From Parcubacteria group bacterium (GTDB lineage: Bacteria > Patescibacteriota > Minisyncoccia > Moranbacterales > UBA2206): a DNA stretch of 64,000 bases. The translations under genes and the position numbers were made by a program. Shown here in pieces: positions 26,391 to 35,419 of this stretch. The stretch covers positions 132,939 through 196,938 of the forward strand of contig JBAYLE010000001.1 in assembly GCA_041664225.1 (NCBI GenBank), written 5' to 3'. The first letter of the stretch is position 1. Each line of letters starts with the position of its first letter. The notes below the pieces were generated by a model. That model was not told the DNA's origin. It worked only from the letters and a program-made list of their open reading frames with translations, and searched no databases.

Positions 26391-27476
26391 TCAGTTTTTT
26401 GGGAACAACAATTTTGATCCGTTCCATGGGTTTAAAACTATTTCATTGTTATATTGGATGTCATCGACCCGTTCTTCAAGCTCGTATTCAACTAACTCAT
26501 TCGAAACGGGAATCTCAAGAAATCTGCTGGCGTTGAATGATAAGAGATTTGCAACCTGTTCATCAGAAAGACCGAGTTGGTGGGCGAGGGTGCAGATGAC
26601 AGCGACCATTTCCTGATTAGAGGGTAAGCCCCCGAGCATTTGAAGTAGCTTTTCTTCCTTTGTGTGGTTAGCGTTGTCAGAACTGATAATAATCAGAGGA
26701 TTATCCAGGGCCAGAAGGCTGATCAAAAACAGACGATGTTTGGATGGGCGCAGATTATTGAAGCACTTGTAGAAAACCGGATCAATGTTTGGGTTCCAGT
26801 TTGTCCGGTCGGCATCGAACCAAAGATAATGTGGACATAGCTCCAAAACTATTTGCATGCCTTGTCTTTGGGCTTCCAAGATAATCATGGCGCTCTCAAT
26901 GCAAGAGACATGGCAGATAATGATTTTCACGCCTGGAACTTTGCGTGCCAGAGAGATTATTTTTCTCACATATGACACTTCGGCTTCAATGGGGTTGCCC
27001 TTGAGGCGTGCGATAATGTATGGGTCATCGCAGTGGCAGGCTATCGCCTTGTTTACTGCTCTGGCCATATACATGGCTCCGAGGATCGTATGATCATACA
27101 TTACGCCAATTGTTCCCGTGGTTACAGATGTTCCGTCGTCTTTCTTGGGGTAGACTTTGCCGCCGAGAATCCAAGGTATTTCAAGAGCTTTTTGAAATTC
27201 ACCCGGGTTGTAATCTGTCAGACCGAACCACAGGTACTGTGGCGGTAAATCAAATTCAATCTGCGCGTCAGTTTGTAGCCCGTGATATTCCGTACAGGCA
27301 GGAACGGAAGTAAGCGGTTCGATAGTATTAGGCATGGCGGCCGAAATTGAAATCAGCCCGCGCTTGGCTTCCAGCATCGTTTGTCGAACAGTTGTTTTGC
27401 TTCTCTGTTTGAGGTCACGTTTGTGACAGTGAAGGTCGATAAGATCTTTTGGAAAACGTCTTTTAATTTTTTTCAT
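26391..27476 (-). CDS. pyrC: dihydroorotase (amidohydrolase family)
   Basis: DLHCH metal-binding motif and an amidohydrolase fold. It is adjacent to and co-directional with pyrK-pyrD. Confidence 0.75.
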   Translation of the reverse strand: MKKIKRRFPKDLIDLHCHKRDLKQRSKTTVRQTMLEAKRGLISISAAMPNTIEPLTSVPACTEYHGLQTDAQIEFDLPPQYLWFGLTDYNPGEFQKALEIPWILGGKVYPKKDDGTSVTTGTIGVMYDHTILGAMYMARAVNKAIACHCDDPYIIARLKGNPIEAEVSYVRKIISLARKVPGVKIIICHVSCIESAMIILEAQRQGMQIVLELCPHYLWFDADRTNWNPNIDPVFYKCFNNLRPSKHRLFLISLLALDNPLIIISSDNANHTKEEKLLQMLGGLPSNQEMVAVICTLAHQLGLSDEQVANLLSFNASRFLEIPVSNELVEYELEERVDDIQYNNEIVLNPWNGSKLLFPKN

Positions 27477-27593: not shown

Positions 27594-27623
27594 TTGACAA
27601 AAACCAATGATATGTGCTAATCT
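27594..27623 (+). promoter_or_regulatory. candidate sigma-70 promoter for the 27643 gene
   Basis: TTGACA - 18 nt - TGcTAATCT (extended -10-like). Confidence 0.3.
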
Positions 27624-27642
27624 AATTTGACATAAATTTAAA

Positions 27643-28728
27643 TTGTTTAACGTTTTTAAAAATATGGAAAATACGCCAAAAACAAGCCAAAATCAGGAAG
27701 GGAAGACCAGTTTTTTTGACTTGGCTAATAATTTGTTGTCTGCTGAATCCGGAAGAGCGCAAGAAATCGTCAGGATGCGATTTGGTCTGGCGCAGGTTGA
27801 ACCGCAAACACTGGAAAAAATTGGCCGAGAAAATAAAATTACGCGCGAAAGGGTGCGGCAGATAATTGGCGATGTGCTTAAGCGCCTGAAGCAAAAAAAG
27901 AACGAAGCTGATTTTAAAGTAGCCGAAGATAAGATTGTTTTTACAATCGGGAACAATAATGGTATAATGGAAGAAAGTAAACTGATAGAAAAATTAAGCA
28001 GTGGCGAATATAAAGAAGCCAATGCAGTTGCTCTTTTTGGGGCGTTATCAGAGAAGATCGTTATTTTTGAAAAAAAAGGCGAGATAAGAAAATCCTGGGC
28101 TGTTTCAAAGGATGTTTTGGGTAAGGTTCAAGATGTCGAAAGTATAGCTAAGGAGATATTTGGAAAAGAAAAGAAATTACTGACTGATGACGAAATTGTT
28201 GAAAAAATCGGCCAGCGTCTGGCAGAAAAGAAAGCGGCCTTTTCCAGAGAGCAAATTTTGAATTATTTGGCTGTTTTGGCAGATGTCCAAAAAAATAAGT
28301 TTGGCAAATGGGGGATAGCTGGTTGGAAGGAGATTAATCCGAAAGGAACCCGTGAAAGAATATATTTGATTCTTAAAGAAAAACGAGAACCACTGCACTT
28401 TACTGAAATTGCAAAACTTATTGATCAATACGGTCTTAGCAAAAGAAAAGCCCATCCCCAGACCGTGCATAATGAATTGATCAAGGACGAACGATTTATT
28501 TTGGTGGGCCGAGGCATTTATGCTCTAAAAGAGTGGGGTTACAAGCGAGGGACTATTCAAGAAGTGTTGCGTGACATCCTAGATAAGAGCCAAAAATCAT
28601 TGACCAAGGAAGAGATTTTAACGGAGGTCATGAAACTTAGAAAAGTGAAGAAAGCAACAGTCATGATCAACTTGAATAATTCAAAAATTTTTGAAAAAGC
28701 CAATAATGCCTATACGATAAAGAAGTAA
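27643..28728 (+). CDS. putative transcription factor: sigma-70 region-4-like HTH (N-terminal) plus HARE-HTH/RNAP-delta-like winged helix (C-terminal)
   Basis: The N-terminus (RMRFGLAQVEPQTLEKIGRENKITRERVRQI) matches the sigma70 region 4 pattern. The C-terminus (PLHFTEIAKLID...DERFILVGRGIYALKEWGY) matches the HARE-HTH pattern. Confidence 0.5.
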   Translation: MFNVFKNMENTPKTSQNQEGKTSFFDLANNLLSAESGRAQEIVRMRFGLAQVEPQTLEKIGRENKITRERVRQIIGDVLKRLKQKKNEADFKVAEDKIVFTIGNNNGIMEESKLIEKLSSGEYKEANAVALFGALSEKIVIFEKKGEIRKSWAVSKDVLGKVQDVESIAKEIFGKEKKLLTDDEIVEKIGQRLAEKKAAFSREQILNYLAVLADVQKNKFGKWGIAGWKEINPKGTRERIYLILKEKREPLHFTEIAKLIDQYGLSKRKAHPQTVHNELIKDERFILVGRGIYALKEWGYKRGTIQEVLRDILDKSQKSLTKEEILTEVMKLRKVKKATVMINLNNSKIFEKANNAYTIKK

Positions 28729-28790
28729 TACTTTCCGGAGGTAACTGAAAACACAAATAAAATTCAAACTTTGCAACGTCAAAGACAAAC

Positions 28791-30062
28791 ATGAACAATA
28801 TTTTAGACGTATTTAGCCAATTTATACCAATCTTTCAAGCGCTGTCTCAATTCTGGTGGATTATTTTACCAGTGCTTTTGTATTTTATGTTTGAACAGCT
28901 TTGGATGGATTTTGTTATAGAATTTTCCAAAGATGCCTTTTTTGCCAAGCTGCAATGGACATATTTGGAAATTATCCCGCCCAAAGATATCGAGAAGGGC
29001 CCAAAGGGATTTGAGTCTTTGTATCAGGGCATTGCCGGTGTCGTGGTTACAATCGTTCCTCTGGATAAGTACTTAAATGGAACCCTCATGGACAGGTTCA
29101 GTTTTGAGATTGTGGGCGAAGAGGGCGTGATGCATTTTTATGTGCGCACCCAAAAGAAATTTAGAAATTTGATCGAAGCACAGCTTTACGCTCAATTCCC
29201 AGGCACGGAAATTGTTGAGGTTGAAGATTACACTCAAAAATTCCCCAAAACCGTTCCCAACAAGGACTGGGATTTGTGGGGGGCGGATATTATGTTTGCG
29301 GAGCCAGACGAACTTCCGATAAAAACCTATGACAAATTTGAAGAGGATATCACCGGCACTATGATTGACCCATTGGCGGCGATGGCGGAAGTCATTGGCA
29401 CTCTGGGCCCAGGACAGCATATCTGGTTGCAATACGTACTTGACCCTCAGCCTGAACTATGGAAGAAAGATGAAGCCCATAGAAAAATAATTGATCAGCT
29501 GGCGAAAAAAACGGAAAAGAAGGAAATGAATTTTTTTGACCACCTGATTGATGTTTTTTCGAATTTATTTAAGGCACTTTCCGGTCCGGTGGAATTCGCG
29601 TCGGCGGAAAAAAATGAAGACCAGCCACTGGAATTCAAATTGACGCCTGGAGAAAAGGAAGCATTAAAAGCGACAGAAGAGAATTTTATGCACAATTTTT
29701 TTCGAGTCAAGATGCGGCTTATAATTTTGGGTCGGCGGGAGGTTTTTGACAAGACCTTTATCACCGCTTTTTTTGGAACAATAAAACAATTCAGTGATTT
29801 GAATCTGAACAGTTTTAAGCCGGAAGATGCCAGCAAAACTTATGCTTATTATTGGATGCACAAAGAACGGTTGGTTTACCGGCAGAGAAAGATTTACCGC
29901 CGCTATCGCGACCGCGATATGACAGGCAAAACTATTTACATGTCTTCTAAGGAACTGGCGACTGTTTGGCATTTCCCGAATATGGAAGTTCAGGCGCCAT
30001 CGCTTACGCAGGTGCAAGCTAAGCGCGGTTCTGCTCCGGCTAATTTGCCCGTCGGGGAATAA
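28791..30062 (+). CDS. hypothetical membrane protein (2 N-terminal TM helices plus ~350-aa soluble domain)
   Basis: Hydrophobic N-terminus; immediately upstream of, and probably translationally coupled to, the TrwB/VirD4-like ATPase. Confidence 0.5.
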   Translation: MNNILDVFSQFIPIFQALSQFWWIILPVLLYFMFEQLWMDFVIEFSKDAFFAKLQWTYLEIIPPKDIEKGPKGFESLYQGIAGVVVTIVPLDKYLNGTLMDRFSFEIVGEEGVMHFYVRTQKKFRNLIEAQLYAQFPGTEIVEVEDYTQKFPKTVPNKDWDLWGADIMFAEPDELPIKTYDKFEEDITGTMIDPLAAMAEVIGTLGPGQHIWLQYVLDPQPELWKKDEAHRKIIDQLAKKTEKKEMNFFDHLIDVFSNLFKALSGPVEFASAEKNEDQPLEFKLTPGEKEALKATEENFMHNFFRVKMRLIILGRREVFDKTFITAFFGTIKQFSDLNLNSFKPEDASKTYAYYWMHKERLVYRQRKIYRRYRDRDMTGKTIYMSSKELATVWHFPNMEVQAPSLTQVQAKRGSAPANLPVGE

Positions 30063-30071
30063 ATAAAATCC

Positions 30072-32078
30072 ATGGCTGAAATTAATTTTTTTGCAAAAAC
30101 AAACTTTCGAAACCAAGAGCGCATTTTTGGCATTAAGCGTGATGACCGGCGGCGGCACATGTATGTGATCGGGAAGACTGGCATGGGTAAATCCAATATG
30201 CTAGAAAATATGGCTATCCAGGATATCCGCAATGGCGAGGGTGTTTGTGTTGTCGACCCGCATGGCGAATTCGCGGAAAAGATGCTCAGGGCCATACCTT
30301 CAAATCGAATCAATGACGTTATTTATTTCAATCCGTCAGACTCGGAATTTCCTATCGCTTTCAATATTTTGGAAGCAGTAGATGAGGACAAGAAAAATCT
30401 TATTGCCTCCGGCATGATGGGCGTTTTCAAAAAGATATGGCCGGACGTCTGGAGCGCGCGGATGGAATATATTTTAAATAATACTATTTTAGCACTGCTT
30501 GATTATCCCGGTTCGACGATGCTGGGAGTGAATCGTATGATGGCTGACAAGGACTATCGCAAGCGGGTGTATCCGAAAATCAAGGATCCGGTGGTTAAGT
30601 CTTTCTGGCTCAATGAATTTGACAAGTGGGATGATAAATTCCGCAAGGAAGCCGTGGCGGCCATCCAAAACAAAGTTGGACAATTTTTGTCATCCTCTGT
30701 TATCCGCCATATCGTCGGCCAGCCGAAATCAGCTATTGATATGCGCGACATCATGGATAATCAGAAAATCTTGATTATCAATTTATCAAAAGGCCGTATC
30801 GGGGAAGATTCAATGCGGCTTTTGGGTGGCATGATTGTTACCAAAATCCAGCTGGCAGCCATGGGCCGCGTAGAGATACCTGAAGAAGAAAGAAAGGATT
30901 TTTACCTGTATGTTGATGAATTCCAGAATTTTGCTACGGAATCGTTCGCCAATATTTTGTCAGAAGCCAGAAAGTACAAATTAAATTTGATTTTAGCCCA
31001 TCAATATATCAACCAGTTGATTTTTGACAGCAACACGACAGTGCGCGACGCGGTTTTTGGAAATGTGGGTACTATTATTTCCTTCCGGGTCGGTGCGGAA
31101 GATGCCGAGCATTTGGAAAAAGAATTTGATCCAGTTTTTTTGATGAATGATATTGTTAATCTTTCCAAGTATAATATTTATTTGAAATTGATGATTGATG
31201 GGGTGGCGGGCGATGCTTTTTCGGCCGCCTCTTTGCCGCCGTTGGATTTGTCGGATACGAAGGAAAGCGAAGAAAAGGTTATCCGCATTTCGCGCGAACG
31301 TTATGGAAAAAATCGTGCAGAAGTGGAAGATCGTATTGCCCGCTGGAGCGGTATGATAATGGAGGACACGGATGACGTGATAATTCATAAAGTAGAACCC
31401 GTTCGCAATGTTGTACCGAATATTGTAGTTGTGCCAAAAACTAAAAAAATTGTGGGCGATTCTGATTTGATCAATACTGTGCCGCCAGTCATCAAAGTTG
31501 TTCCGAAAAATCCCAAACCGGTGAGCGATGCCATTGTGGTTGAACCGGTTAAGCGGGCTGCGGTAGTCCAAAACGAAGTTGTGGATACTGCGAAAGATTC
31601 AATTATTATCACAGAAAAATCCAACATTGAACAAAAAGAAAAAAAAGAATTATATGAAACACTTTGCGATACTTGCGAACAAAAGATTTATGTTCCATTC
31701 AAGCCTGATCCAAATCGGCCGGCTTTTTGCAAGGAATGTCTGAAAGATTATCAGCGAGCGCTGGCGAAAGCGCGCAACCCGCAAGTCGCGAATGACCAAC
31801 AACAGCCGGTGAATAATCGACCTGCCCGCAATGTTGCGCATAGCGCTACGGGCGGACAACAACTAATAGTGGTAAAGAAACCCGAGACAGTTAAGTCAAG
31901 CGCAAGAGAAGAAGTGCGCAAGGTGTATGTTCCTCAAGATAAGCCCATGAGTTTGTCGCAAATGTCACACATTGCGCCGAAAAAATTTAAAGCGGTCAGA
32001 CAAAAGCCGCAGGTCAATCTGAATGATGTCAGGGATTTGATCAATAAGACGAAAAAAGATGATAGCAAACAAAATTAG
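30072..32078 (+). CDS. TrwB/TraD/VirD4-like P-loop NTPase (type IV coupling protein-like AAA domain) with C-terminal zinc ribbon
   Basis: Walker A VIGKTGMGKS, then VCVVDPHGE (the DPKGD-like motif of coupling proteins) and Walker B FYLYVDEFQNF. The C-terminus carries CDTCEQK...CKEC. The protein has no TM domain of its own. Confidence 0.6.
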   Translation: MAEINFFAKTNFRNQERIFGIKRDDRRRHMYVIGKTGMGKSNMLENMAIQDIRNGEGVCVVDPHGEFAEKMLRAIPSNRINDVIYFNPSDSEFPIAFNILEAVDEDKKNLIASGMMGVFKKIWPDVWSARMEYILNNTILALLDYPGSTMLGVNRMMADKDYRKRVYPKIKDPVVKSFWLNEFDKWDDKFRKEAVAAIQNKVGQFLSSSVIRHIVGQPKSAIDMRDIMDNQKILIINLSKGRIGEDSMRLLGGMIVTKIQLAAMGRVEIPEEERKDFYLYVDEFQNFATESFANILSEARKYKLNLILAHQYINQLIFDSNTTVRDAVFGNVGTIISFRVGAEDAEHLEKEFDPVFLMNDIVNLSKYNIYLKLMIDGVAGDAFSAASLPPLDLSDTKESEEKVIRISRERYGKNRAEVEDRIARWSGMIMEDTDDVIIHKVEPVRNVVPNIVVVPKTKKIVGDSDLINTVPPVIKVVPKNPKPVSDAIVVEPVKRAAVVQNEVVDTAKDSIIITEKSNIEQKEKKELYETLCDTCEQKIYVPFKPDPNRPAFCKECLKDYQRALAKARNPQVANDQQQPVNNRPARNVAHSATGGQQLIVVKKPETVKSSAREEVRKVYVPQDKPMSLSQMSHIAPKKFKAVRQKPQVNLNDVRDLINKTKKDDSKQN

Positions 32079-32250
32079 ATACGATAGTAAAATTCCCACC
32101 CATGTAGGTTTTATCTTCTTGCTGGTTTTTGGTTTGATTGTGGCTTTTATTACAATCAGGATGGGAGATAAAATAATTCAAGGCGCGCCTAATTCAAAAG
32201 CGCTTAGCGAAAATAGGCAATTGCAGCAGATGATTGAAAATACGAAATAA
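32059..32250 (+). CDS. hypothetical small membrane protein (63 aa)
   Basis: Overlaps the end of the ATPase gene; one TM helix; followed by a terminator. Confidence 0.35.
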   Translation: MIANKIRYDSKIPTHVGFIFLLVFGLIVAFITIRMGDKIIQGAPNSKALSENRQLQQMIENTK

Positions 32251-32260
32251 GAACACAAAA

Positions 32261-32290
32261 ACAGCCGGAATTTGGATGGCTGTTTTTTTG
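32261..32290 (+). terminator. Rho-independent terminator closing the 27.6-32.3 kb cassette
   Basis: acagcc...ggctgt hairpin followed by ttttttt. Confidence 0.55.
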
Positions 32291-35119: not shown

Positions 35120-35419
35120 ATGCAAAATTTTTCAAATGATGATGCTAGCCAAGATGATGATGGAAAAGCAACTGCGCAGGACAAGGCCAGGCGAAAAAGC
35201 GAAATTCAGCGGGAAACAATTATGATTGAATCTGACTATCGAAAACTGGCTAATGAAAAAGCCAGTCTGGATATGGAAATCCGGCAGCTTAAAAAAGATG
35301 AGGCGCACATTAAGATTAACTTGCAAGAAAAACAGGCGAGGTTGGGCAAGGTTGAGTTCGAACTCTTACAACTGGATACGAATCTGAAAAGCCTAAAAAA
35401 GAAATTAAACTTGTTATAA
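35120..35419 (+). CDS. hypothetical coiled-coil protein
   Basis: 99 aa, heptad-rich. Confidence 0.4.
   Translation: MQNFSNDDASQDDDGKATAQDKARRKSEIQRETIMIESDYRKLANEKASLDMEIRQLKKDEAHIKINLQEKQARLGKVEFELLQLDTNLKSLKKKLNLL

Follow-up and report, generated by a model that had tools for sequence, protein, structure and literature searches.

In a four-gene operon of an ultra-small CPR bacterium, a Parcubacteria/Moranbacteria-like MAG, the second and third genes (g2 and g3) each encode, as natural fusions indicate, one half of a single protein divided by gene fission. On balance it is probable that the pair represents a split member of a Patescibacteria-wide family combining DUF8128 with a VirD4/TrwB-like ATPase, which would assemble as a membrane motor and most likely work with a T4SS encoded elsewhere. 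The operon, g1 to g4, is co-directional and lies between a strong, conserved sigma-70-type promoter and an intrinsic terminator (Table 1), with 62 nt from g1 to g2, 9 nt from g2 to g3 and a 20-nt overlap of g3 and g4. An earlier sequence-only reading had described just such a tightly spaced block with a 3' overlap, and its ORF positions were confirmed. It also held that this is not a conventional conjugative system, and that judgement stands, as a search of the 64-kb window for relaxase, VirB4 and pilin genes found none and its remaining content is housekeeping. The flanks of 160 split loci likewise hold no T4SS, relaxase or pilin gene. The neighbours are pyrimidine-synthesis, mnmA and alaS genes, GC content is normal, and synteny is vertically inherited.

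Table 1. Features of the operon, numbered by position in the window, i.e., the whole 64-kb stretch of DNA that was analysed.
Feature	Position	Strand	Basis
Sigma-70-type operon promoter	27594..27623	+	Sequence read and conservation among orthologous loci
Second TTGACA, candidate operator	27629..27634	+	TTGAM box conservation
g1, 354 aa	27664..28728	+	ATG at 27664 chosen by two independent gene callers
g2, 423 aa	28791..30062	+	PF26449 on record for identical protein; family alignment; AF2 model
g3 ATPase module, residues 1-440	30072..31391	+	Pfam, PDB sequence matches, fused CPR homologues
g3 C-terminal tail	31392..32078	+	zf_Tbcl_2 and TIGR04272 matches; conservation profile
g4, 63 aa	32059..32250	+	Homologous small ORFs directly 3' of g3 in relatives
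Intrinsic terminator	32257..32290	+	Hairpin core CAGCC 32262-32266 / GGCTG 32278-32282, then T7

The case for a split protein comes from relatives in which both parts occur on a single chain. The 824 positions of phrog_5156 are matched by g2 at 77-366 and by g3 at 407-814, and gp156 of Bacillus phage G (825 aa) is a DUF8128-ATPase fusion, with whose N-terminus the g2 family aligns at 94.9% probability in hhalign. Most of the 120 gp156 homologues, which are largely from CPR and 725-1000 aa long, carry PF26449 together with PF10412/PF01935/PF02534, and for 105 of them BLAST finds separate matches in colinear order, first to g2 and further on to g3. The ATPase half of the fused CPR proteins is 50-60% identical to g3, and the junction aligns residue by residue, with ...ELAxxxHFP...APANLP closing g2 and INFFAKTNFRN...DRRRHxY.GKTGxGKS opening g3. 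These findings bear out the proposal that the upstream gene completes g3, and the natural fusions suggest that the two products reassociate. The fused forms, known from other Patescibacteria and Bacillus phages, are annotated in NCBI as 'type IV secretion system DNA-binding domain-containing protein'. They differ from the protein described here not only in being encoded by one gene, since the split lineage also adds a linker, a zinc finger and a terminal peptide tail; it often has a sigma-r4/HARE-HTH gene upstream as well, and a sub-lineage has g4. A fused, T4SS-adjacent subfamily of 728 aa differs further in having no N-terminal TM helix.

The complete g3 (30072-32078, 668 aa) begins with a P-loop NTPase that is T4CP/TrwB-like and contains an all-alpha insertion; GKTGMGKS (residues 34-41, nt 30171-30194) forms Walker A, and Walker B is the YLYVDEFQ motif. 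It is matched in Pfam by TrwB_AAD_bind (1.4e-13), DUF87 (4.4e-9), T4SS-DNA_transf and TraG-D_C, and its closest solved relatives by sequence are TrwB and DotL, while its matches to VirB4 families are weaker (AAA_10, E 0.039; P-loop_TraG, E 0.02). A TM segment was looked for in g3 and none was found. The tail runs through a variable low-complexity linker, a CxxC-x17-CxxC treble-clef zinc finger (residues 525-558, nt 31644-31745; zf_Tbcl_2 5.9e-9, also in NCBIfam), a second variable linker and a conserved peptide, SLSQM..APKKFK (residues ~627-640, nt ~31950-31991). All 120 split-form homologues of g3 have the zinc motif, and no fused protein does. The sequence-only reading had been right to see in g3 a coupling-protein-like ATPase with no membrane segment of its own and a zinc domain past a low-complexity linker, and the domains it named for g1 and g3 were all matched in Pfam/NCBIfam.

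The membrane segment of g2 is a single N-terminal hydrophobic helix (~residues 20-45), not a polytopic domain, and is followed by a cytoplasmic DUF8128 (PF26449) and a conserved motif, ELATxxHFP; the protein closes with APxNLP, likewise a conserved peptide. The stand-alone g2 family has 2652 representatives at 50% clustering. For the AF2 model of g2 (pLDDT 72), the 13 best PDB matches are TrwK/VirB4 (E 1e-6 to 2e-4), with the next at E ~1e-2, and in BFVD the model matches phage gp156 (2.6e-17) and the VirB4-like gp155 of phage G (2e-7). Sequence profiles do not connect DUF8128 with the VirB4 N-domain, the link being confined to the ATPase halves, and the resemblance of the two domains is one of predicted structures only. 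The suggestion that g2 is the missing coupling-protein N-domain holds insofar as g2 supplies the N-terminal part, as in the natural fusions, but it does not hold for the canonical two-TM domain, g2 being one TM helix plus ~370 aa of DUF8128 with a predicted VirB4-N-terminal-like fold. The family is already on record, as a T4CP to which Pfam DUF8128 is joined by fusion or by pairing, and such proteins have been counted among thousands of 'orphan T4CP homologues' in Patescibacteria (PMC12102498).

Among known systems, the pair can be set beside the T4CPs (VirD4/TrwB/TraD/DotL), with which it shares the motor and its insertion, the best g3 matches, a C-terminal half that superposes on TrwB at TMt ~0.6 in the model of a fused homologue (P0275, pLDDT 90.3), and the presence of some fused orthologues beside T4SS genes. 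It differs from them in the placing of DUF8128 on a separate single-TM gene, in the zinc-finger tail and in having no relaxase or T4SS nearby. The two-part plan of an N-terminal domain of ~400 aa followed by a RecA-like ATPase is that of VirB4/TrwK; VirB4 is alone among the top PDB matches of the predicted g2 fold, and the full-length fused model is colinear with TrwK, with 890-936 columns aligned with VirB4. In contrast, the N-terminal part has no sequence-level similarity to VirB4, the ATPase half scores higher against T4CP families, and in CPR T4SS clusters the bona fide VirB4 is another protein. The HerA/FtsK superfamily (HerA, FtsK/SpoIIIE and the archaeal Ced ATPases) has in common with g3 the ASCE P-loop fold of a likely ring-shaped translocase, the DUF87 match and the HerA structures among the fold matches, and NCBIfam CedD gives a weak match over the g3 Walker A region. 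There is, however, no HAS-barrel, FtsK gamma or Ced partner gene, and g3 scores far under the family cut-offs (35 bits for CedD, against 600).

Gene order was followed in close relatives and in a distant set of 80 metagenomic loci, in which g2 is ~30-35% identical. Among 80 species-level genomes, g1-g2-g3 are colinear in every one that could be assessed; mnmA and a 99-aa coiled-coil gene persist in the close set as well, and because that whole neighbourhood is syntenic, close-set synteny alone is weak evidence. At the distant loci g3 follows g2 in 58 of 69 (~84%) and g1 precedes g2 in ~42 of 70 (~60%), with the control neighbour mnmA kept in 10 of 80. Of 69 close loci, 30-32 have a g4 homologue directly 3' of g3, in most cases with an overlap of 8-14 nt, and none of 40 distant loci has one. 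The cassette proposed earlier is real in its genes, promoter and terminator and not invariant in its membership: the g2-g3 pairing is retained at most distant loci, that of g1 with g2 in part, and g4 belongs to a sub-lineage. The last is, as first described, a small TM protein. It is single-pass, with a basic N-terminus, a TM helix at ~residues 15-34 and, outside the membrane, a short tail that is conserved (GxKI..AxNSxAF), and would be a lineage-specific membrane subunit that is translationally coupled to g3. The terminator beyond it was also upheld, with a hairpin (~32257-32282) and T7 folding at -17.5 kcal/mol in RNAfold; it is missed by a simple scan because the hairpin loop is long, and a comparable one follows g3 in only 24 of 68 orthologous loci.

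The promoter-like region with two TTGACA was likewise found to be real. The first is the -35 element (27594-27599), separated by an 18-nt spacer from the -10 hexamer TAATCT (27618-27623), which with the TG at 27615-27616 is part of an extended -10, TGTGcTAATCT (27613-27623). Upstream TTGACA is no chance match: 68 of 71 orthologous loci have it ahead of g1, as against 7.7% of background windows; the orthologous consensus is TTGACAAA-N-TGTGcTAATAT, with a TG-extended -10 in 60 of 74. The second TTGACA starts 5 nt past the -10 hexamer, about where transcription is expected to begin, and its TGACA core aligns with a conserved TTGAM box 3 nt past the -10 in orthologous promoters. Such a box stands 2-4 nt past the -10 in 34 of 59 g1 promoters, compared to 0 of 18 other extended -10 promoters of the same loci, and its conservation does not extend to the distant set. 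This second copy is a candidate operator, to which g1 may bind with its sigma-region-4-like HTH.

The longest ORF of g1 is 27643-28728, and its product has matches to both Sigma70_r4 (2.4e-10) and HARE-HTH (6.2e-10). A sigma-70 region 4.2-like HTH (~residues 20-85, TLExIG..ITRERVRQI) is followed by an uncharacterised middle region (~85-230), a HARE-HTH winged helix (~235-300) and a C-terminal region that is conserved in the family alignment; PDB sequence matches cover sigma region 4 only. Without sigma regions 2 or 3, it is no sigma factor, and it differs from RNAP delta (RpoE), whose model its winged helix matches, in the C-terminal placing of HARE-HTH and the lack of an acidic tail. The uncharacterised ~150 aa joining its two domains sets it apart from both. 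As the first gene of the operon, g1 would encode a DNA/RNAP-binding protein that probably regulates the operon, possibly through the second TTGACA box. Roughly one chance in three may be given to the alternative that g1 stands outside the system, as a general RNAP accessory factor of sigma-region-4/delta-like type merely encoded upstream of a functional unit of g2-g3, with or without g4. Both of its domains derive from RNAP-associated proteins (TRERVRQI is near-invariant in the family, and the delta model scores 39.3 bits against a cut-off of 42), ~28 of 70 distant loci have no g1 upstream of g2, and the small upstream genes of the fused relatives are unrelated to it (0.2% probability in hhalign), all within a close-set region that is syntenic as a whole. 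Yet adjacency of g1 and g2 reaches down to ~30% g2 identity in ~60% of loci, against 12% for mnmA, it is kept even where g3 has moved away (locus L128 and others), and it is g1 that carries the operon promoter with its promoter-specific second TTGAC box.

As to what the motor serves, a patescibacterial T4SS encoded elsewhere in the genome would be the most likely partner, and a T4SS-independent role is nearly as likely. Fused 728-aa orthologues whose ATPase is 50-54% identical to g3 adjoin divergent PrgI / TraC-like / VirB4 / M23 peptidase / T4SS-pilin clusters on three contigs, and ordinary conjugative systems often encode the T4CP far away from virB4 (PMC12102498); both points weigh against an exapted translocase. 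In that alternative, which is somewhat unlikely in its specific form, the split motor would act alone at the membrane, perhaps with g4, as a housekeeping translocase of DNA or RNA with g1 as DNA-binding adaptor or regulator; examples of what it might do are nucleic acid uptake or export, chromosome/nucleoid handling, and epibiont acquisition of host nucleic acids. It accords with the housekeeping setting and inherited synteny of the locus, the very strong conservation of the ATPase half across CPR classes (50-60% identity), the zinc-finger tail gained by the split lineage alone, the presence of g1 as DNA-binding partner, and Berkelbacteria tandem paralogues that adjoin secDF, not a T4SS. Most fused orthologues, like the g2/g3 locus, are not beside T4SS clusters. 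Patescibacterial genomes have about two T4CP homologues each, nearly all away from virB4 (148 of 5,713 are near it), the T4CP homologue of Ca. Southlakia epibionticum is non-essential while its T4SS is essential, and exaptation was raised by the authors of that survey themselves (PMC12102498). Against it, no channel component for an autonomous translocon was identified, g2 and g4 having one TM helix each. An anti-phage defence module or ICE/prophage remnant with a HerA/VirD4-like ATPase (cf. MADS mad8 and HerA-containing systems) is very improbable: g3 matches PADLOC mad8 (1.9e-18) and several HerA models, g1 matches MzaA through region 4 alone, and Bacillus jumbo and SPO1-like phages carry the fused form, but the defence matches are confined to generic P-loop/HTH modules, g2 has no significant defence match (mad3, E 0.04) and found nothing by tblastn in 50,697 phage records, and the locus, which is found in synteny in virtually all genomes of a large clade, has no integrase, nuclease, methyltransferase or compositional anomaly.

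In the preferred reading of a split membrane motor, g2 would supply the membrane anchor and the VirB4-N-terminal-like domain, and g3 the Walker A/B motor, with its catalytic motifs intact, and the flexible tail. The halves would rejoin at the inner face of the membrane; the peptide at the end of g2 and the first strand of g3 fall in a stretch for which the fused relatives show order. As an oligomer like the TrwB/VirB4 hexamers, the complex would spend ATP on recruiting a macromolecular substrate and pushing it. Nucleic acid or nucleoprotein is the likeliest substrate, and would be engaged via the zinc-finger tail. The operon is a split variant of a widespread family, and no new kind of machine.

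The four open reading frames that the sequence-only reading had drawn as one block (see the table) were all recovered, with gaps of 62 nt (g1-g2) and 9 nt (g2-g3) and a 20-nt overlap of g3 and g4, and the terminator proposed 3' of g4 does fold as a hairpin followed by T7, at -17.5 kcal/mol. The window comes from a Parcubacteria-group (CPR/Patescibacteria) MAG, has unremarkable GC and is housekeeping in content; around the locus lie genes for pyrimidine synthesis, mnmA, alaS, an ftsA-like gene, genes for ribosomal proteins and rpoA, and further dnaB, dnaX, mur/PBP genes and dnaK. Database entries under 'Parcubacteria group bacterium' include proteins identical to g2 and g3. T4SS, relaxase, pilin and integrase genes were sought in the 64-kb window and none was found, in keeping with the earlier remark that relaxase, VirB4 and pilin genes are missing nearby. 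Divergent from g1, beside pyrD-like and pyrB-like genes, lies a 361-aa ORF with no Pfam match at E<=1e-4 and an HxH-type motif (LIDLHCH) near its N-terminus, which may encode a very divergent dihydroorotase.

Features of the g1-g4 locus and of compared loci (window coordinates unless a locus is named)
Feature	Location	Strand	Remarks
361-aa ORF	26391-27476	-	divergent from g1
Second TTGACA	27629-27634		TTGAM box
g1	27664 (start ATG)	+	354 aa; most likely start, chosen by two gene callers
g2	28791-30062	+	ORF
g2 C-terminus	30039-30056		(A/P)PxNLP motif
g3	30072-32078	+	ORF
g3 terminal peptide	31944-31991		g3 residues 625-640
g4	32059-32250	+	ORF; one TM helix
Coiled-coil gene	35120-35419		99 aa; downstream of the cluster
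gp155	L084 (Bacillus phage G 87975-97237) 1220-2869		VirB4-like ATPase; directly upstream of gp156
gp156	L084 2885-5362		fused DUF8128-T4CP; mis-annotated 'MsbA-like'
T4SS cluster	L087 963-5872		patescibacterial
T4SS cluster	L088 1647-7927		patescibacterial
Tandem fused paralogues	L089 2556-8784		Berkelbacteria-like
Tandem fused paralogues	L090 1941-8348		Berkelbacteria-like
Polytopic membrane protein	L098 709-2232		distant set; 13 nt 5' of g2

Profile searches place g3 in the TrwB/T4CP families, as had been proposed for this P-loop ATPase. Residues 23-350 match TrwB_AAD_bind (1.4e-13; 50.9 bits against a cut-off of 20.5), T4SS-DNA_transf (3.3e-8), DUF87 and TraG-D_C; the nearest solved proteins in a search of PDB sequences are TrwB and DotL, and every member of the family alignment keeps the Walker A lysine and the Walker B glutamate. 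As in a type IV coupling protein (T4CP; VirD4/TrwB), a nucleotide-binding domain with Walker A and B motifs homologous to TrwB is present, but the TM domain, typically of two helices, that precedes this domain on the same T4CP chain is not: g3 has no hydrophobic segment, a point already made from the sequence. The anchor is instead one helix on the separate g2 protein, parted from the nucleotide-binding domain by the ~370-aa DUF8128. This N-terminal hydrophobic helix of g2 is followed by a soluble alpha/beta domain, which went unmatched in the local Pfam search because that copy has no PF26449 (DUF8128) model; PF26449 is precomputed for P0001, the database protein identical to g2, and for all 120 homologues listed.

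Sequence comparison indicates that g2 and g3 each correspond to one half of a single protein, and the central idea of the sequence-only reading, that gene 2 completes gene 3, was borne out by natural fusions. Within phrog_5156 (PHROGs, 824 positions), g2 aligns at 77-366 and g3 at 407-814. The best phage relative of g3 is gp156 of Bacillus phage G, a protein of 825 aa whose N-terminus matches the g2 family with an hhalign probability of 94.9%. A search with gp156 led in turn to CPR proteins of 725-1000 aa, from Berkelbacteria, Falkowbacteria, Saccharibacteria, Gottesmanbacteria and others, which combine PF26449 with T4CP/HerA domains, and 105 of the 120 gp156 homologues listed gave separate, colinear BLAST matches to g2 and then to g3. 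The fused homologues are 40-60% identical to the window proteins in the ATPase half and 20-29% in the DUF8128 half, and the alignment of concatenated g2 and g3 with them is continuous through the junction, which reads ...ELAxxxHFP...APANLP(xx) on the g2 side and (x)INFFA(K/R)T..(R/K)N...DRRxHxY.GKTGTGKS on the g3 side.

The split form is found in 80 species-level genomes; a further 80 distant metagenomic loci have it too, without a single fused case, and the best 150 of 2652 representatives from a search of 1.84 billion proteins are all stand-alone, at ~400-600 aa. A frameshifted fused gene, arising as an assembly artefact, can be ruled out, since the split, complete with separate start codons and gaps between the genes, recurs in ~150 independent loci and in at least 150 representative clusters. 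The motif (A/P)PxNLP is invariant at the end of the stand-alone DUF8128 proteins (P0391-P0509). Distant members of this group have an invariant PPxNLP at the extreme C-terminus, placed after a variable disordered insert of 60-170 aa, and in the fused proteins this motif sits in an ordered segment just before the ATPase. A terminal PPxNLP after a disordered insert would fit a docking peptide for which contact with the ATPase has to be kept. The g2 protein would tether g3 to the cytoplasmic face of the membrane, and the pair would form a ring ATPase like TrwB/VirB4.

The split g3 proteins also carry an addition of their own. Their tail comprises two variable linkers, a conserved treble-clef CxxC-x17-CxxC finger (residues 525-558 of g3) and, after the finger and a variable linker, a terminal peptide, SLSQM..APKKFK, which is conserved across 71 orthologues. 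The zinc-finger tail sets the two forms apart, being found in 120/120 split g3 homologues and in none of the fused proteins; it would engage a nucleic-acid or nucleoprotein substrate.

Structure prediction brings in the second ATPase of type IV secretion. The 13 best PDB matches of the g2 model (pLDDT 72.4) are all TrwK/VirB4 of plasmid R388, at E 1e-6 to 2e-4, with the next at E ~1e-2; among viral models, gp156 (2.6e-17) and further fused proteins of Bacillus phages match it, as does the VirB4-like gp155 (2e-7), which Pfam places with P-loop_TraG/AAA_10. As a proxy for the g2:g3 complex, the natural fusion P0275 was modelled with 94 homologues, at high confidence (pLDDT 90.3, pTM 0.82). The model is colinear with full-length VirB4 (TrwK) over 890-936 columns; its C-terminal half alone, the whole of which superposes on TrwB, gives a TMt of ~0.6, and an all-helical insertion lies at residues ~493-603, between Walker A and B. 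The ~400-aa N-terminal domain and C-terminal ATPase of VirB4 thus have their counterpart here in predicted structure only. By sequence the proteins do not class as VirB4, with AAA_10 at E 0.039 (13.4 bits, cut-off 27.5) and P-loop_TraG at E 0.02, and the Pfam search gave no match to CagE_TrbE_VirB. The g2 profile found nothing among PDB sequences, even at E 10, nor did tblastn of g2 against 50,697 phage records, and in profile-profile comparison of the fused family with gp155 and a CPR VirB4 only the ATPase halves align. Since these sequence routes found no N-terminal similarity, the link to the VirB4 N-domain is one of predicted structure, and the family is best described as a T4CP-type motor preceded by a module that, in the models, resembles the VirB4 N-domain.

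The fused relatives differ in their surroundings. The T4SS association expected of a T4CP is seen only for fused orthologues of 728 aa, whose ATPase is 50-54% identical to that of g3 and which have no TM helix; in three contigs their genes adjoin, divergently, genes for PrgI, TraC-like, VirB4, M23-peptidase and T4SS-pilin proteins. Other fused relatives stand in housekeeping contexts, and no association with relaxase or virB4 was found in the 64-kb window or the flanks of 160 split loci. Two Berkelbacteria-like loci, L089 and L090, encode two tandem fused paralogues of ~830 aa and ~930 aa, each preceded by a small unannotated protein (~106 aa, ~175 aa), with secDF downstream on the opposite strand; of the fused relatives, the ~930-aa copy stands nearest to g2+g3. 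Proteins related to gp156 also occur in SPO1-like and CP-51-like Bacillus phages. In the patescibacterial T4SS clusters L087 and L088, a separate 218-aa 'TraC-like' gene (PF26593) precedes the VirB4 ATPase, called in L087 as two ORFs of 387 and 231 aa, so that a division into N- and C-terminal parts seems to be a recurring feature of CPR T4SS ATPases.

Conservation was followed in a close set of 80 species-level genomes (g2 43-75% identical) and a distant set of 80 metagenomic loci (g2 ~30-35% identical). In the close set, g1-g2-g3 are colinear wherever the contig permits the test: g1 is present in 77/80 loci, the three exceptions starting within 300 nt of g2, and g3 in 78/80, the two exceptions ending at g2. 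These loci are broadly syntenic, with mnmA following in about half, and the distant set, where mnmA is kept in only 10/80, is the more informative on gene links. There g3 directly follows g2 in 58 of 69 assessable loci and g1 precedes g2 in ~42/70, several loci (e.g., L128) keeping g1-g2 without an adjacent g3, so that the g1 link is partial but deeply conserved. Co-occurrence of all four genes in relatives, which the sequence-only reading had made a test of the block, extends to g1-g2-g3 in the close set and only in part to g4, whose family was found in 30-32 of 69 close loci, always right after g3 and usually overlapping it by 8-14 nt, and in 0/40 distant loci.

Other small genes share this neighbourhood. 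In a deeper clade without g4 (L049, L065, L068, L071, L073, L075, L078, L079), a different conserved small ORF lies right after g3, with a 35-37-aa core that is a single TM helix, MSFRKWHKKxYxFWVVISVLVVxSMxxFLFAPFFMY. A coiled-coil gene with no Pfam match on record is co-directional 3' of the cluster in 46/80 close loci, directly after g3 in L017, L028, L040, L046 and L070; the distant set has no copy of it. In L098, g1 is replaced by a polytopic membrane protein (SGLAHLAAVSGLHVG) whose sequence, on reading, looks ComEC/Rec2-like, a lone example that may be due to chance.

Both domains that had been read in g1, a sigma-70 region-4 HTH and a HARE-HTH, were matched (Sigma70_r4 and HARE-HTH in Pfam and NCBIfam), and its PDB sequence matches are all to sigma region 4. 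The family alignment has a nearly invariant TLExIG..(I/V)TRER(V/I)RQI and a delta-subunit-like winged helix, with a variable region of ~150 aa between them. A sigma factor of the sigma-70 family needs regions 2 and 4, but g1 has Sigma70_r4 only, and its NCBIfam sigma matches are confined to region 4 and far below the cut-offs (RpoD_Cterm, 48.8 vs 354); lacking region 2, g1 is not a sigma factor. Nor does it correspond to the delta subunit of RNA polymerase (RpoE), for which it scores 39.3 bits on TIGR04567, below the cut-off of 42: delta has an N-terminal HARE-HTH and an acidic C-terminal tail, whereas in g1 the HARE-HTH is C-terminal and the protein end is basic. A literature search on HARE-HTH with sigma found nothing relevant. 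The small genes before fused proteins (106-178 aa) were considered as cut-down versions of g1 and set aside, with one BLAST match at E 0.016 and an hhalign probability of 0.2%.

The g1 promoter consists of TTGACA, an 18-nt spacer and an extended -10, TGTGcTAATCT. Of the two TTGACA that had been read as a promoter region, the first occurs 5' of g1 in 68 of 71 orthologous loci with enough upstream sequence, against 7.7% of background windows, the aligned consensus being TTGACAAA-N-TGTGcTAATAT. The second is conserved in the close set and not in the distant one. It corresponds to a TTGAM box followed by an A-run in the orthologous promoters of L004-L083, 3 nt from the -10 hexamer in most of these and 5 nt in the window. 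Within the close set the box is present in 34/59 g1 promoters vs 0/18 other extended -10 promoters of the same loci, and it is not conserved in distant relatives (1/13). Specific as it is to close-set g1 promoters, it was dropped as a general operator and kept only as a lineage-specific lead. The sigma-region-4-like HTH of g1 may use the second box as its operator. The g1 protein would regulate the operon, possibly through this TTGAC box, whose sequence is like that of the -35 element bound by sigma region 4.

As to cellular role, a coupling ATPase for a T4SS encoded elsewhere ranks slightly first, because some orthologues adjoin T4SS clusters and a T4CP gene often lies apart from virB4. Among 5,713 VirD4-type T4CP homologues in 2,918 patescibacterial genomes, only 148 lie near virB4 (Quinonero-Coronel et al. 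2025, PMC12102498). Close behind comes an exapted translocase that works independently of any T4SS, which is favoured by the housekeeping context of the locus, its near-universal retention and the published finding that in Ca. S. epibionticum the T4CP homologue is non-essential and the T4SS essential; the same study leaves open a T4CP homologue 'exapted for other functions' (PMC12102498). Neither that study nor a T4SS review (PMC12857230) describes the DUF8128 domain, the split form or the sigma-r4/HARE-HTH neighbour, and a full-text literature search found no paper on DUF8128. We think it improbable that DUF8128-T4CP is a distinct, previously undescribed VirB4/VirD4 branch and, in Parcubacteria, a core T4SS-independent nucleic-acid translocation module. 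Such a branch could have kept a VirB4-type N-terminal domain in front of a T4CP-type motor, and its Parcubacteria form could have split in two, gained a zinc-finger substrate-binding tail and become coupled to a sigma4/delta-like DNA-binding protein, giving ultra-small symbionts a module that could serve, for example, in acquiring or exporting DNA or RNA. If true, this would bear on the origin of coupling proteins from VirB4-like ancestors. Anti-phage defence was considered because of PADLOC matches to mad8, HerA and MzaA, and a defence or mobile-element origin is unlikely, as the matches are generic ATPase/HTH ones, the housekeeping context is conserved, and neither the full gene complement nor the variable island-like context of MADS/HerA-type defence is seen at g1-g4.

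Patescibacteria (CPR) make up a large share of bacterial diversity and are host-dependent. Their T4SS was essential in the one strain tested, and thousands of coupling-protein homologues lie away from any T4SS (PMC12102498). The operon structure, domain identities, fission/fusion relation and lineage-specific additions are established. The g1-g4 system is not a new kind of machine; g2-g3 is a variant, split and decorated, of a T4CP-like family that is very common in Patescibacteria. These orphan homologues now have a defined architecture, namely a TM anchor, a DUF8128 predicted to resemble the VirB4 N-domain and a T4CP motor; in a large Parcubacteria clade the protein is made as two polypeptides and has an extra zinc-finger tail. 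Should the N-domain prove homologous to that of VirB4, this would bear on the evolutionary relation of the two T4SS ATPases. Candidate partners, the sigma4/HARE-HTH protein and the small membrane protein, can be named together with a candidate operator, and the natural split marks the domain boundary, predicts a docking peptide (APxNLP) and provides separate genes for interaction, ATPase and DNA-binding assays. The finding brings no new mechanism and sharpens a question of CPR biology.
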